IMG/VR virus record: IMGVR_UViG_3300021255_000139
Strand: one strand, 5' to 3'
Length of the DNA stretch: 64,000 nucleotides
DNA from: a virus
Lineage: Duplodnaviria; Heunggongvirae; Uroviricota; Caudoviricetes
Position numbers and translations under genes: made by a program. Below are positions 10,946 through 37,935 of this stretch, in pieces (the first letter of the stretch is position 1; each line of letters opens with the position of its first letter). The notes below the pieces were generated by a model. It had not been told where the DNA came from and did no database searches. It saw only the letters and a program-made list of their open reading frames with translations.

Positions 10946-11872
10946 GTGAGCAAGAGCATTATTAAAACGTATTCTGTGATTAACAATCCAAAATATAAAA
11001 ATCCAGTGTGCAGCATTTCTGGAGGTGCGGATTCCGATATTATATTAGATTTATGTATGAATTGTGATCCAAACAAGAAAGTGAAATATGTATGGTTTGA
11101 TACTGGATTAGAGTATAAAGCAACAAAGGATCATCTAAAATATTTGGAAGAAATATATGATATAGAAATTGAAAGATTCAAAGCATTAAAGTCTATTCCT
11201 CATAGTTGTAAAGAATACGGGCAACCGTTTCTTTCAAAACAAGTCAGTGACTTTATAAGTAGGTTGCAGAAACATGGATTTCAATGGGAAGATGAATCTT
11301 ATGAAATATTATCTCAAAGATACTCGAATTGCAAATCTGCCCTTGAATGGTGGTGTTGTAATAAAGGAGAAAAAAGCAGATTCAATATCACAAACAATAA
11401 GTATTTAAAAGAGTTTATGGTAGAGAATCCACCTTGGTTTAAAATTTCAAGCAAATGCTGCAAATATGCAAAGAAAGATGTGGCAAAGGCACTTATAAAA
11501 TCAGGGAAACATGATCTCGATATAGTTGGAATTAGAAAAGCAGAAGGAGGTATTAGGTCATCTTTATATAAGAGTTGTTTTGCAGAAAATCAATTTACTG
11601 ATGATTACAGACCAGTATTCTGGTATAAAGATTCCGATAAAAGAGATTACGAAAACGCCTTTTGTATTACGCACAGTAAGTGTTATGAAGAATATGGTTT
11701 AAAGAGAACAGGATGTGCCGGGTGTCCATATAATAGATATTTTGAAGATGAATTATCAGTTATTGAAAAATATGAACCAAATTTATATAAAGCTGTTTGT
11801 ACAATTTTTAAGGATTCATATAAATACACACGGATGTATAAAGACTATGTAGAACAACAAAAATATAAATAA
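10946..11872 (+). CDS. PAPS reductase family / PP-loop ATP pyrophosphatase
   Basis: SGGADSD PP-loop, GIRKAEGGIRSS, RPVFWYKDSD motif, C-terminal Cys cluster; GTG start. Confidence 0.7.
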   Translation: MSKSIIKTYSVINNPKYKNPVCSISGGADSDIILDLCMNCDPNKKVKYVWFDTGLEYKATKDHLKYLEEIYDIEIERFKALKSIPHSCKEYGQPFLSKQVSDFISRLQKHGFQWEDESYEILSQRYSNCKSALEWWCCNKGEKSRFNITNNKYLKEFMVENPPWFKISSKCCKYAKKDVAKALIKSGKHDLDIVGIRKAEGGIRSSLYKSCFAENQFTDDYRPVFWYKDSDKRDYENAFCITHSKCYEEYGLKRTGCAGCPYNRYFEDELSVIEKYEPNLYKAVCTIFKDSYKYTRMYKDYVEQQKYK

Positions 11873-11887
11873 CAACCAAAAGGAAAA

Positions 11888-12576
11888 ATGTTAGAGATTG
11901 ATACAATTATTCATGATGATTGTATGAAATTCCTCGATTCTCTGAGGGGGGGGGTGGGATTTTTGACCTAACCCTAACCGATATTCCATACGGTGAAGTC
12001 AATCGAAGTAGTAACGGGTTGCGGAATTTGAATAAAAAAGCTGCAGATGTTATGACTTTTGATCTTCCTACCTTCCTCGAAGAATTATACAGAGTGACGA
12101 AAAGTACGATCATTATATTTTGTGGCAAAGAACAGTTAAGCGAAATACATAGATTCTTTGCCGGGAAACAAATGAAAGGATTAGGAACTGTACGACAACT
12201 GATATGGAATAAAAGTAATCCGTCACCAATGAACGGACAACATATTTATCTTTCAGGTGTTGAAAATGCAGTATGGTTCAAGAAACGTGGTGGCACATTT
12301 AACGCAAAGTGCAAAAATACGGTTTTCAAATACCCGAATGGTCGGGCGAAACTCCATCCTACCGAGAAGAATCATGATCTTATCCGAGAACTGATTAGGG
12401 ATAACAGCAACGAAGGTGATTTGATTTTTGATCCTTGTTGTGGATCAGGCGCACATTGCTTAGTTGCAGCAGAAGAAAATCGCCACTACATAGGAATTGA
12501 ACTGAATGACGATTATTATAAAATCGCCAGCGAACGATTAGAAAACTACAAAGGAGAAACTGATGGGAAACGATAA
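11888..12576 (+). CDS. beta-class amino (N6A/N4C) DNA methyltransferase, frameshifted at poly-G9
   Basis: N-terminus IIHDDCMKFLDSL (ATG at 11888) runs out of frame at G9 tract 11946-11954; downstream frame has DIPY and FDPCCGSGA motifs. Confidence 0.65.
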
Positions 12577-14743: not shown

Positions 14744-15610
14744 TTGTTTGATGGAATAAGTTGTGGATATTTGGCACTGCAACGAGCCGGATTGAATATA
14801 GATACATATTATGCAAGTGAAATTGAGCCTCATGCAGAAGGGATTTCAAAATATCATTTCCCGGACATTGTGAGATTAGGAGATGTAAATTTTTATGATA
14901 ATTGGAATCTTCCACACATTCATTTGTTGATTGGAGGAAGTCCATGTCAAGATTTATCTATTGCAAAGGCTAATAGAGAAGGACTAAACGGAGAGAAAAG
15001 CGGTCTATTTTGGAAATACGTTGAATGCTTAGAGAAGTTTAAACCAGATTATTTCTTGTTAGAGAACAATTACAGTATGCCAAAAGCTGCACGAGATGTA
15101 ATATCAGAAGTGCTTGGAGCAGAACCAATTATGATAAATTCTGATCTTGTTTCAGCACAAAACAGAAAAAGATTGTACTGGACAAATATATCGGGCATTG
15201 AACAGCCAAAAGATAAAGGAATAGAGTTGCAGAATATACTTGAAAGTGGAACAGTAGACCGTAAAAAATCATTATGTGTGACAAGACGATATGCTGGATT
15301 TCACGGATCACAAGCATTGTTATGTAGACGGTACTTTGGAAAGTCTTTTGGTCAGGCAGTTTTTGAGAAAGATATAAATACAATCAAACAACAATGGAAG
15401 GAAAACCCGTTCTTTGAATCTGATGATAACAACATTAGACAATTAACAATTACGGAGTGCGAAAGACTGCAGACTCTGCCAGATGGCTATACAAAGTATG
15501 AAGTATGGAAAAATGAAGTGAGAGAAACACCAAAAATCGCACGATATGAAGCAGTTGGTAATGGTTGGACAGTAGATGTGATAAGTCACATTTTAGGGTA
15601 TTTAAAATGA
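14744..15610 (+). CDS. DNA (cytosine-5)-methyltransferase
   Basis: motifs I (LFDGISCGYLAL), IV (GSPCQDLS), VIII (QNRKRLY), X (GNGW); TTG start. Confidence 0.8.
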   Translation: MFDGISCGYLALQRAGLNIDTYYASEIEPHAEGISKYHFPDIVRLGDVNFYDNWNLPHIHLLIGGSPCQDLSIAKANREGLNGEKSGLFWKYVECLEKFKPDYFLLENNYSMPKAARDVISEVLGAEPIMINSDLVSAQNRKRLYWTNISGIEQPKDKGIELQNILESGTVDRKKSLCVTRRYAGFHGSQALLCRRYFGKSFGQAVFEKDINTIKQQWKENPFFESDDNNIRQLTITECERLQTLPDGYTKYEVWKNEVRETPKIARYEAVGNGWTVDVISHILGYLK

Positions 15611-32539: not shown

Positions 32540-33298
32540 TTGGAATTAAACAAAATATACAGAGGCGATTGCTTAGAAGTAATGAAGCAGTTGCCAGACG
32601 ATTCAGTTGATATGATCCTGACTGATTTGCCGTATTCTCGCACCAAAAATCATTGGGATGTGATCATACCTCTTGAACCTATGTGGGAACAATATCTTAG
32701 GATTGCAAAAGAAAATGCTTGCATTGCTTTATTTGCAGATGGAATGTTCATGGCTGATCTGATGAAAAGTCAAGAATCAATTTGGAAATATAATCTTGTA
32801 TGGGATAAGGTTTTGACTTCTGGATTCTTGAATGCCAACAGAATGCCACTTAAAGCGCATGAAGAAATCTGTATCTTTTACAGAAAGCCACCTGTTTATA
32901 ATCCGCAGAAAGTGCCGGGAAACCGCAACCACAGCAAAGGTAGTAAGAAGGTTAATAAGAATCATAACTACGGAGACTATGGTTTTGTGGATAATCATGA
33001 AACGCTTGGAGAGATGAAACATCCGACAAGTATTTTAAGATTTCAAAAGCCACACCCGTCTAAATCCTTGCATCCAACAGAAAAATCAGTTGAATTATGT
33101 GAATGGTTAATCAAAACTTACACAAATCCGAGGGGGATTGTCCTCGATAGCTGCATTGGATCAGGAACTACTTGTTTGGCTGCAATTAAGAACGACAGAT
33201 ACTATATTGGAATCGACTTAGAAGAACAATATTGCAGAGTTGCGGAAAACAGAATCAGAGAATATCTGGCTGAAAAAGAATCTATAGAGGTGGAATAA
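32540..33298 (+). CDS. beta-class amino (N6A/N4C) DNA methyltransferase
   Basis: YRGDCLEVMKQLPDDSVDMILTDLPY (DPPY-type) then VLDSCIGSGTT (motif I); TTG start with GAGGA RBS. Confidence 0.8.
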   Translation: MELNKIYRGDCLEVMKQLPDDSVDMILTDLPYSRTKNHWDVIIPLEPMWEQYLRIAKENACIALFADGMFMADLMKSQESIWKYNLVWDKVLTSGFLNANRMPLKAHEEICIFYRKPPVYNPQKVPGNRNHSKGSKKVNKNHNYGDYGFVDNHETLGEMKHPTSILRFQKPHPSKSLHPTEKSVELCEWLIKTYTNPRGIVLDSCIGSGTTCLAAIKNDRYYIGIDLEEQYCRVAENRIREYLAEKESIEVE

Positions 33299-35573: not shown

Positions 35574-36521
35574 TTGTTAATGCAAAAGTTTATTATGATG
35601 TGTGGACTTCCCGGTAGTGGAAAATCTACATACGCAAAGAAACATTTTGTCGGAGAAAATGTAGCATATCTTTCGTCTGACGAATTAAGAGAGGAACTTC
35701 TTGGTGATGAAAATAATCAGGAAGAGAACGGAAAAGTATTTGAAGAAATGGAAAGACGCACTATTTCAGCTTTAAAAGCCGGGAAAAGTGTTGTATACGA
35801 TGCTTGTAATACAAGCTATAAGAAACGGTCACACCTTATCAAACAGATAAATAGATACGGAATACAAAAGATTTGTGTTGTGGTTTATGCTGATTTAGCC
35901 GACTGTATTTCGAGAAATCTCAATAGAGAAAGAAAAGTTCCAAAAGAAGCAATCGAAAAAATGCTCAAAGGCTTTTATTTTCCGCAGTATTTTGAAGGTT
36001 GGGATGAAATCAAGATTGCCGGAACAATCCATACTGGTGAAGCCACCGAGATGCTTAACGAGTTGTTCTTTGGTAAAGATGGTTTGATTTATCAGGATCA
36101 TGATAATCCGCACCACAAACTTTCGATTGGTTATCACTGTTTGATGTGCTATGCTAGTGCTTTATTCTTGGGCGGTGATGAAAATCTGCAGTTAGCTGCA
36201 TTATTCCATGATATTGGAAAGCCGTTCACGAAGGGATTTAAAGATAGTAAAGGAAACGAAAGCGAAGAAGCCCACTATTACCAGCACCATTTAGTTTCTG
36301 GATATTTTGCAGTTCCTTATCTATATAGTGCAGATGCCGTTCAGAAAGACGATTTAAAAGATATTCTTGAAATTCTCGCACTGATTGATTACCATATGCA
36401 TCCTTATTTTTGGGAGAAAGATGATAATAATAAGATGAAAGAAAAGTATCATAATTTATGGGGTGATGATCTGTACAACAAAATTCTTTTACTTCATGAA
36501 TGTGATGAAAGGGCGCACTAA
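35574..36521 (+). CDS. polynucleotide kinase (P-loop) fused to HD phosphohydrolase (Pnkp-like)
   Basis: CGLPGSGKST Walker A at N-terminus; LAALFHDIGKPF HD motif in C-half. Confidence 0.65.
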   Translation: MLMQKFIMMCGLPGSGKSTYAKKHFVGENVAYLSSDELREELLGDENNQEENGKVFEEMERRTISALKAGKSVVYDACNTSYKKRSHLIKQINRYGIQKICVVVYADLADCISRNLNRERKVPKEAIEKMLKGFYFPQYFEGWDEIKIAGTIHTGEATEMLNELFFGKDGLIYQDHDNPHHKLSIGYHCLMCYASALFLGGDENLQLAALFHDIGKPFTKGFKDSKGNESEEAHYYQHHLVSGYFAVPYLYSADAVQKDDLKDILEILALIDYHMHPYFWEKDDNNKMKEKYHNLWGDDLYNKILLLHECDERAH

Positions 36522-37105
36522 TGTTTACAATGACAGAAGATTTTGCCAAAGAATTGCTCAAACAAGATGATGGAAACCATTCTCTTTTGTTCCATTATTT
36601 TAAAAAGTGGATAGACTCACATCATATGGACGAATATGAAAGATTCGGTTTGGAAGAAATGATGTTCTTTGAACGTGATTATCTTCTATATTATCTTGAC
36701 ATTATGAAGCGAAAAATCTCACGAAGAAAAATTGTAGACATTGGATGTCAGCATGGTTTCCAGCAAGTCATTTTCTCGGACTTTGAATACATTGGAATTG
36801 ATATTTCAAAATGCCGGACAATGTGGGATTATGGCACATATATTCTTGGCAAAGACTTTACTGAGTTAGATATTGATTTATCTGATTCAATACTAATATC
36901 AAATATGTCTCTTGGATATTTCAATAACTGGATCAACAAAACAGATAAAGAAATAGCGAAAAAATTGAGTAAATGTGATTATCTCTATATTGCAACTACG
37001 GATGATTTGCTTGAAGAACTGAAACCATATTACACAGAAACAACACTAATTGAAGATCATTTTATATTAGGTGAACATTTTAGGAGAGTATTTTTTGGAA
37101 GATAA
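36521..37105 (+). CDS. hypothetical protein
   Basis: ORF. Confidence 0.35.
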   Translation: MFTMTEDFAKELLKQDDGNHSLLFHYFKKWIDSHHMDEYERFGLEEMMFFERDYLLYYLDIMKRKISRRKIVDIGCQHGFQQVIFSDFEYIGIDISKCRTMWDYGTYILGKDFTELDIDLSDSILISNMSLGYFNNWINKTDKEIAKKLSKCDYLYIATTDDLLEELKPYYTETTLIEDHFILGEHFRRVFFGR

Positions 37106-37337
37106 AATTGAAGTTCTGGTTGCGGATTTGCAGCCAAAAGAAAATGAATGGATTGTTGTTAAATATAATCCGTATGAAATATCGGTATCGACAATTAAAA
37201 ACTATATGGATTATTTAGGCAAGAAATTCGGAGAACACGTAATAGCAGTTCCCAATGATTTAGAAATCATGAAGGGAGACAAAGACAAGTATATTAAAGC
37301 CTTTGAAAATATTTTGGAATGGTTAAAGAATGAGTGA
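37071..37337 (+). CDS. hypothetical protein
   Basis: ORF. Confidence 0.3.
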   Translation: MNILGEYFLEDKIEVLVADLQPKENEWIVVKYNPYEISVSTIKNYMDYLGKKFGEHVIAVPNDLEIMKGDKDKYIKAFENILEWLKNE

Positions 37338-37935
37338 TTGGATCGGCAACAGAAAAAGTGTTTATACCACTCTTGGAGCAAGCAGTCATTCTGAAAAAGA
37401 AAGAGAAATGAACGATTACTATGCTACTGATCCGTATGCGATAGACGTTTTAATCAATGACGGGGGGGCAAATCTTGCACCTAACATTTGGGAAGTAAGC
37501 TGCGGAGAAGGTCATTTATCAAAACGACTTGAAGAATATGGATATAATGTTAAATCGACTGATTTGATTTATCGTGGATATGGGGTCGGAGGAATTGATT
37601 TTCTCACTTGTAACGATAAGTTTGATGGCGATATTTTAACAAATCCACCTTATAAATTTGCACAAGAATTTGTAGAACATTCACTTGAGTTAATCCCAGA
37701 CGGAAGAAAAGTATTTATGTTTCTCAAACTTACTTTCTTAGAAGGGAAAAAGAGAAGAAAACTTTTTGATCTTAGATGTTTTAAAACTCTGTACGTTTCT
37801 ACAAAACGGATTCTTTGTGCAAAAAATGGAGATTTTGAAGGAATGAAAGCCGGAGGTGGCAGTGCTGTAGCTTATGGGTGGTATGAATTTGAAAAAGGAT
37901 ATTGTGGGAATCCGATGATTAAATGGATAAATTGA
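37330..37935 (+). CDS. gamma-class N6-adenine DNA methyltransferase
   Basis: motif I-like IWEVSCGEGHL upstream of NPPY (ILTNPPYKF). Confidence 0.65.
   Translation: MSDWIGNRKSVYTTLGASSHSEKEREMNDYYATDPYAIDVLINDGGANLAPNIWEVSCGEGHLSKRLEEYGYNVKSTDLIYRGYGVGGIDFLTCNDKFDGDILTNPPYKFAQEFVEHSLELIPDGRKVFMFLKLTFLEGKKRRKLFDLRCFKTLYVSTKRILCAKNGDFEGMKAGGGSAVAYGWYEFEKGYCGNPMIKWIN

Follow-up and report, generated by a model that had tools for sequence, protein, structure and literature searches.

A poly-G tract as a probable phase-variation switch in an orphan DNA methyltransferase of uncultured gut phages

Introduction

A run of nine G in the 5' part of a DNA methyltransferase gene of an uncultured gut phage is very probably a genuine hypermutable slipped-strand contingency locus, i.e., an SSR phase-variation switch in an orphan beta-class DNA methyltransferase, as judged from the sequences of the gene and of its relatives. 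The gene, here called methyltransferase 1, lies in a stretch of 64,000 nucleotides taken from an IMG/VR virus record (the window), where the tract has a length that breaks the reading frame (OFF), while other lengths found in relatives keep it (ON). By analogy with known systems, such slipped-strand loci probably toggle phage DNA methylation as a form of bet-hedging against restriction and methylation-dependent defences.

The window, which encodes a DNA polymerase, NrdD, an endolysin-domain protein, a tail protein and an NAD-ligase, is phage DNA; its sequence recurs unchanged in a 73,359-nt Logan contig of SRR873598. Related contigs of 146-186 kb are found in human-gut-type and bovine metagenomes and in IMG/VR. 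A megablast of the locus against 50,697 GenBank phage records returned no match, and the best GenBank phage protein match, which is 54% identical, belongs to phage ENP2309 (Herelleviridae) and has no tract at the site.

Anatomy of methyltransferase 1 and its tract

The features of the locus are as follows.

10946..11872, + strand: PAPS-reductase-like gene directly upstream of methyltransferase 1 (context, not part of the switch)
11888..11971, + strand: 5' fragment of methyltransferase 1, with the true start codon, the ribosome-binding site, the N-terminal strand and helix (IIHDDCMKFL), a frameshifted tail and a stop
11920..12576, + strand: 3' ORF of methyltransferase 1, read in the -1 frame and containing both DIPY (motif IV) and FDPCCGSGA (motif I)
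11946..11954, + strand: poly-G tract, G9, OFF length, within the coding sequence of methyltransferase 1 (read from the sequence)

Translation from the ATG at 11888 yields a 5' ORF of 27 aa (11888-11971), whose product is MLEIDTIIHDDCMKFLDSLRGGVGFLT followed by the stop. The start codon is preceded by the ribosome-binding motif AAGGA at 11880-11884, with AAGGAAAA immediately 5' of the ATG, and the N-terminus MLEIDTIIHDDCMKFL of the 5' ORF is shared by the full-length relatives P0001, P0121, P0122, P0131 and P0137. A preliminary description of this DNA had read nine G at 11946-11954, with the frame lost after the tract and the DIPY and FDPCCGSGA motifs continuing in the -1 frame from an internal TTG. 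The sequence agrees on each point: the 218-aa ORF at 11920-12576 is offset by +2 (= -1) and begins at a TTG that was assigned mechanically and has no Shine-Dalgarno sequence. Indeed, the true coding part of this 3' ORF starts at the G tract, not at the TTG. The same description had held that one G more or two fewer would restore a single ORF, as was found when the tract was rebuilt in silico: G10 gives one ORF of 229 aa and G7 one of 228 aa, and no single ORF results with G8, G9 or G11.

The tract, which is composed as AGG GGG GGG GG, covers as G9 codons 20-23 and thus lies 5' of every catalytic motif; in the in-frame alleles it codes for a Gly loop, RGGG(G). The paralog at 32540, whose N-terminus had been put forward as comparable, does begin with a similar sequence, KIYRGDCLEVMKQLPDDSVDMILTDLPY (GDCLEVMK-type), the overall identity between the paralog (32540-33298) and the repaired methyltransferase 1 being 24%. 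A promoter and terminator scan placed 11 promoter-like sites around the gene, against 13.3 expected.

Protein family and fold

The repaired protein matches the Pfam family N6_N4_Mtase (PF01555) with 90.5 bits over residues 27-215, the cut-off being 26.7, and also matches PHROG 67, 'DNA methyltransferase'. It carries DIPY at residues 32-35 and FDPCCGSG at residues 181-188, so that motif IV is N-terminal to motif I. On these sequence features methyltransferase 1 is classed as a beta-class N6-adenine/N4-cytosine DNA methyltransferase. The best matches among solved structures are the DpnA-like adenine methyltransferases PDB 5hek and 5hfj (HMMER E = 7e-15), and the alignment with 5hek is collinear from residue 8 to residue 219; as it begins at residue 8, the N-terminal element belongs to the fold. 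The phage enzyme shares with M1.HpyAVI and DpnA-like enzymes (5hek, 5hfj) the N-terminal strand and helix, a (D/S)PPY-like motif IV and an FxGxG motif I near the C-terminus. The likeness rests on the HMMER E-value, and the phage protein differs from M1.HpyAVI in having DIPY instead of DPPY as motif IV and in carrying a Gly-run loop, which the H. pylori enzyme lacks.

In the AlphaFold2 model of the G10 protein (mean pLDDT 78; about 90 over residues 1-30), a strand at residues 6-8 and a helix at 12-18 are followed by a loop at 19-25 and by a strand at 26-32 that runs into DIPY. The glycines encoded by the tract are residues 21-23 of a Gly run spanning 21-24, inside this loop, and this position accounts for the tolerance of 2, 3 or 4 glycines. 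OFF alleles lose the N-terminal strand and helix. In particular, the first usable start of G8 alleles comes after motif IV, and the resulting product of 174 aa is devoid of DIPY.

A tract far from chance expectation

The G9 tract is far from a chance feature. The G+C content of the window is 35%, and G9 is the longest homopolymer in its 64 kb; under a first-order Markov model the expected number of G runs per window is 0.008 for lengths of at least 9 and 0.27 for lengths of at least 7. The window has only two G runs of at least 7, each in the 5' part of a DNA methyltransferase gene. Since the four recognisable DNA methyltransferase genes make up 4.6% of the window, the chance that both long tracts fall inside such genes is about 0.002. 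Within the long ORFs of the window, glycine is encoded least often by GGG (9.5% of its codons), and AGG, at 11%, is rare among Arg codons.

Tract length varies within the same phage

The preliminary description had proposed counting tract lengths in related genomes, and assemblies of the same uncultured gut phage (about 166 kb; 93-100% amino acid identity) do differ, with G7 (ON), G8 (OFF), G9 (OFF) and G10 (ON) all found. By locus, L001 has G10, L002 has G7, L072 has G9 and L073-L087 have G8. The full-length relatives of the repaired protein include proteins that are 99% identical and have RGGGG (G10 in the DNA) and proteins that are 93% identical and have RGGG (G7 in the DNA). The clusters at 90% identity also contain many truncated calls, either of 218 aa with the TTG start or of 174 and 172 aa with the start MTFDLPT; when these were traced to the DNA, the contigs of the 218-aa calls were found to carry G9 and those of the 174- and 172-aa calls G8. 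A frame-blind sample of 10 genomes, anchored on the neighbouring DUF6275 gene and not selected by the reading frame of the methyltransferase, comprised six with G8, two with G9, one with G7 and one with G10 (2 ON, 8 OFF).

The closest comparison is provided by three contigs from different samples, L112 (ERZ28612948), L116 (SRR1267595) and L119 (ERZ12302817), which carry G8, G7 and G10, respectively, and show 0 differences across 882 + 2,378 = 3,260 flanking bases. Not all contigs are independent, as an ENA record and an identical Logan contig may stem from the same sequencing runs. Base-for-base identity over more than 3 kb is seen among L112, L116 and L119 and also between L114 and L117 (ERZ12302814 and SRR873598), and these contigs may have been assembled from one set of runs or from related ones. 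Should L116 and L119 share their reads, G7 against G10 would amount to heterogeneity within a sample. The repeat-length polymorphism that marks an SSR contingency locus is present, with both ON and OFF lengths.

Different tract lengths could also arise if the true tract were in frame and the G9 of this contig had been miscalled in sequencing or assembly. Several platforms are prone to error at G runs of 9-10, and the only other contig with G9 (ERZ12302814 NODE_73) has identical flanks and could share its reads with the window. Such an error is nonetheless highly improbable. Indeed, G8 is reproduced on at least 10 SNP haplotypes and in contigs whose names point to differing assemblers (k87, k119, k127, NODE_, scaffold_ and Logan), and short tracts, for which the indel error of Illumina is negligible, are equally polymorphic (G6/G7 in lineages B and E; G6/G7/G8 in methyltransferase 2, both described below). 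Nine A6/T6 runs served as controls and were constant in length in 10 + 10 genomes at two loci, although several of the runs carry base substitutions; this length control in relatives replaced a check by +/-1 changes at every homopolymer of the window, which was noisy since intergenic runs fuse neighbouring genes. The conservation of the tract across lineages, despite its use of the rarest Gly codon, also speaks against a miscall.

The tract recurs at the same loop in diverged lineages

The exact DNA pattern of the window's lineage has 0 matches in IMG/VR, and loci were gathered there through conserved peptides, regardless of frame state. A run of at least six G is present at the homologous loop in 27 IMG/VR loci from at least six lineages, 7 of them ON and 20 OFF. 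All 20 OFF alleles are repaired by adding or removing 1-2 G, and they retain 192-221 intact codons downstream. Five lineage flanks of the tract are itemised here; other flanks exist too.

...CTGA-Gn-TGGGATTTT
...GTAGAT-Gn-CAATTTGAC
...GACGA-Gn-TAAATCTA
...AAC/AAT-Gn-CAGAGTA
...AAACA-Gn-TGTTTGAT

Among the IMG/VR loci that have no tract, no frame break is found at the loop site, and sister lineages code for Gly-Gly there as GGTGGA. Lineages B and E show ON/OFF polymorphism with the short tracts G6 and G7; in lineage B, G6 is ON and G7 OFF, and a third, in-frame length codes for VDGGGQ. The sequences suggest that, while synonymous sites became saturated, this protein loop either retained its tract or gained it anew in many lineages.

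A peculiarity of lineages B and E (L005-L012, L015, L022-L024, L037-L041, L054 and L068) is that a GAT codon precedes the tract, some 20 nt 5' of the codons for LTLTDIPY. In their G7 OFF alleles, GA-TG-G makes an ATG in frame with the body of the enzyme (ATG GGG GGG CAA...), and the upstream ORF ends at a TGA 11 nt further on. Owing to the in-frame ATG of the G7 OFF alleles, a protein of 201 aa starting with MGGQFDL is called, with hundreds of members in databases. Termination-reinitiation may yield a protein shortened at its N-terminus in these alleles.

Selection on the gene and the fraction of OFF alleles

Apart from its tract, methyltransferase 1 is intact and, as its substitution pattern indicates, under strong purifying selection, which is not the condition of a pseudogene. 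For the codons 3' of the tract, the comparison of two OFF alleles gives a dN/dS of 0.03 and that of sub-lineages 0.07, the value for tract-free relatives being 0.05; between deeper lineages the synonymous sites have reached saturation. The downstream ORF is intact, with 205-207 codons, in 31 of 31 loci of the same phage, a set that includes several duplicate views of one contig.

These data bear on the proposal that methyltransferase 1 is a decaying pseudogene in the process of being lost, in which the frameshift is one lesion in a fragile homopolymer. Most sampled alleles are OFF (8/10 in this phage, 20/27 among the IMG/VR relatives), as such decay would lead one to expect, and the other methyltransferases of the phage might make this one dispensable. 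Decay is, however, extremely improbable given that a second lesion is found in 0 OFF alleles of any lineage and that dN/dS (0.03-0.07) is the same as in tract-free relatives. Moreover, contigs with an identical background differ in being ON or OFF, and the tract has outlasted the saturation of synonymous sites between lineages. When all loci not selected by frame are considered, 28 of 37 (about three quarters) are OFF. This fraction is indistinguishable from the neutral expectation of 2/3 (P = 0.16), and thus these snapshots give no sign of net selection for ON.

Recoding as an alternative to switching

Out-of-frame alleles might also be expressed by programmed recoding, either through a ribosomal frameshift or through slippage of the RNA polymerase, in which case tract length would tune the level of the enzyme. 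If tRNA-Gly slipped by -1 on the G GGG GGG of G9, the product would be precisely that of G10, and a slip of +1 on G8 would yield that of G7; transcriptional slippage is known to occur at long homopolymers. Yet the alleles would need opposite shifts (+1 for G8, -1 for G9, and +1 for G7 in lineages B and E) and coexist with in-frame alleles, so that the relatives share no one programmed shift. The RNA 3' of the tract forms no stable structure (z = +0.71), a heptamer with GGG in both sites does not count among the classical, efficient slippery sequences, and the rG:dC hybrid is the least prone to slippage. Programmed recoding is thus very unlikely, and with offsets that differ, in-frame alleles that exist and a 3' structure that is absent, the tract was not assigned to the programmed ribosomal frameshift sites. 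Low-level synthesis of the full-length product from G8 and G9 by transcriptional or ribosomal slippage is possible.

A probable second poly-G switch in an unrelated methyltransferase

The other long G tract of the window lies 132 nt into a gene unrelated to methyltransferase 1, here called methyltransferase 2.

37330..37935, + strand: methyltransferase 2, 201 aa, an NPPY-type DNA methyltransferase of PHROG 799 (E = 8.8e-55)
37462..37468, + strand: second poly-G tract, G7, in frame (ON), coding for ...NDGGAN...

Among 10 genomes anchored on the downstream 76-aa gene, this tract is G7 in six (ON), G6 in two (OFF) and G8 in two (OFF), and the OFF lengths split the gene calls into 55 + 123 or 51 + 159 aa. 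Distant IMG/VR homologs of methyltransferase 2 (50-71% identity) have neither the tract nor the two extra glycines. The states of the two genes combine as follows.

Methyltransferase 1 ON, 2 ON: ERZ28654170 scaffold_160 (same contig)
Methyltransferase 1 OFF, 2 ON: the window and ERZ12302814 NODE_73 (same contig)
Methyltransferase 1 ON, 2 OFF: ERZ12302817 and SRR1267595 (two contigs of one sample)
Methyltransferase 1 OFF, 2 OFF: ERZ28612941 scaffold_82 (deduced from contigs of equal length, 167,181 nt)

The window holds further methyltransferases and a methyltransferase-like ORF, none of which has a long homopolymer.

14744-15610: C5 DNA methylase (PHROG 116 here; PF00145 recorded for the homologous gene in relatives)
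32540-33298: second beta-class N6/N4 enzyme
36521-37105: 194-aa ORF with a SAM-binding-like VDIGCQHG motif

For one relative (L084), Hint/intein domains are recorded in the gene of the C5 methylase.

Gene neighbourhood and host leads

Methyltransferase 1 sits in a module of phage replication and nucleotide metabolism, and no Res, HsdR or HsdS neighbour is found. Genomes of the same phage differ in whether they carry the PAPS-reductase-like gene immediately 5' of it (L001 and L072-L087 compared), with no obvious link to the state of the tract, and some contigs call shorter versions of 271, 288 and 298 aa. In lineage B (L005-L014), a PARP-domain protein (404 aa), an ADP-ribosylglycohydrolase and 'Sequestin' (PF21825) are encoded within a few kb of the methyltransferase, which suggests, from the annotated domains, an ADP-ribosylation or NAD-related counter-defence module.

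As regards the host, a scan of genome contigs returned only MAG bins with mixed labels (Treponema, Lachnospiraceae, Clostridia and Pseudoflavonifractor). A 140-aa fragment of the lineage-B methyltransferase (P0140, WP_270246371.1) is annotated in Coprococcus sp. AM11-30B, on a contig of 175,827 nt. A cultured Lachnospiraceae isolate may carry a phage of this group, or the two may have been co-assembled; this is the best host lead and falls short of a demonstration.

Proposed mechanism

The preliminary description had left the choice between phase variation and a homopolymer error, and the former is supported by the occurrence of G7-G10 on identical flanks, the stability of the A6/T6 controls, the recurrence of the tract and purifying selection. 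In the proposed switch, the homopolymer would gain or lose single G during replication of phage DNA, presumably by slippage, at a rate far above that of point mutation. At G7 or G10, the ATG at 11888 is in frame with the catalytic body, leading to an enzyme of 228 or 229 aa with a loop of 3 or 4 Gly, respectively. At G8 or G9, translation would end after about 27 codons and the body with DIPY and FDPCCGSGA would not be made natively, so that OFF alleles are expected to be inactive. Methyltransferase 2 would be toggled likewise by its own tract, which is G7 and ON here, giving rise to populations with several methylation states. The payoff would be that of bet-hedging: methylated progeny may resist the restriction enzymes of a cognate host, and unmethylated progeny may evade methylation-dependent (Type IV-like) defences. 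The reversibility of ON/OFF switching is inferred from population data.

Relation to known systems

The arrangement resembles that of bacterial phasevarions (Type III mod, Type I hsd and Type IIG genes in Haemophilus, Neisseria, Helicobacter and Campylobacter), in which an SSR inside the ORF of a methyltransferase turns it ON or OFF by the gain or loss of one unit and several independently switching methyltransferases are possible per genome, as here. The phage enzymes differ in being orphan, Type II-like beta-class and NPPY-type enzymes on a virus of about 166 kb, with no adjacent restriction or specificity partner. Besides, the DNA that is methylated is presumably the phage's own, and the expected payoff is escape from defence instead of control of a bacterial regulon. 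A phasevarion proper consists of Mod or HsdM of a chromosomal restriction-modification system; the phage module, which has no Res, HsdR or HsdS, is not a member of that class and works likewise.

A homopolymer switch in a phage gene that modifies phage DNA has been described in T2. Indeed, the A9 tract of the alpha-glucosyltransferase gene agt undergoes reversible +/-1 frameshifts that toggle DNA glucosylation, which was shown experimentally to trade off TgvAB against McrA/BC, with mutant frequencies near 7e-4 in stocks (Gomez, Barrick and Waters, bioRxiv 10.1101/2025.10.21.683753). The T2 case shares with the present one the location of a homopolymer in such a gene. It concerns a poly-A tract in a glucosyltransferase of a cultured coliphage and is experimental, whereas the poly-G tracts reported here are in methyltransferases of uncultured gut phages known from their sequence, most assemblies have an OFF consensus, and many lineages share the conserved tract at one and the same loop.

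Hypermutable polyG tracts are reported in the receptor-binding proteins of Campylobacter Fletchervirus, where they change host range (Sorensen et al. 2021, Cell Rep 35:109214), and a polyG in a methylase gene of the Bordetella phage BPP-1 was noted only (Liu et al. 2004, as given by a citing preprint). Going by the preprint that cites both, the likeness lies in G7-G11 tracts within phage ORFs that create subpopulations, BPP-1 being an earlier case of a phage methylase gene with a G tract; the Fletchervirus tracts are in receptor-binding proteins, in contrast to the methyltransferases of the present phages. No account of poly-G switching in orphan methyltransferases of gut phages turned up in a full-text literature search. 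The kind of mechanism is thus known already, and what stands out here is the presence of two switches per genome, a tract that is conserved or recurrent at one loop, and OFF as the commonest consensus.

Implications

Contingency loci of phages have only just been reported, for Fletchervirus receptor-binding proteins and for agt of T2, and the present tracts extend them to orphan DNA methyltransferases and to abundant uncultured phages of the gut and rumen. There are also consequences for annotation. Gene callers fragment these genes into products of 27 + 218 aa, 174 aa or 201 aa, and since they split or shorten the genes, hundreds of database entries are OFF-phase fragments and not distinct proteins. 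'Frameshifted' phage methyltransferases should not, therefore, be automatically corrected or discarded as errors.

A broader proposal, which we advance tentatively and a little short of even confidence, is that uncultured gut phages of about 150-180 kb possess a viral 'phasevarion', in which at least two unrelated orphan methyltransferases switch independently. One burst could then comprise up to four methylation states and be pre-adapted to hosts with different restriction and methylation-dependent defences, with the tract acting as a selected device for evolvability. If bet-hedging of this kind is true, methylation state would help to set the host range of phages in a heritable and rapidly reversible way, with a bearing on virome ecology and on the assignment of hosts by methylation motif.
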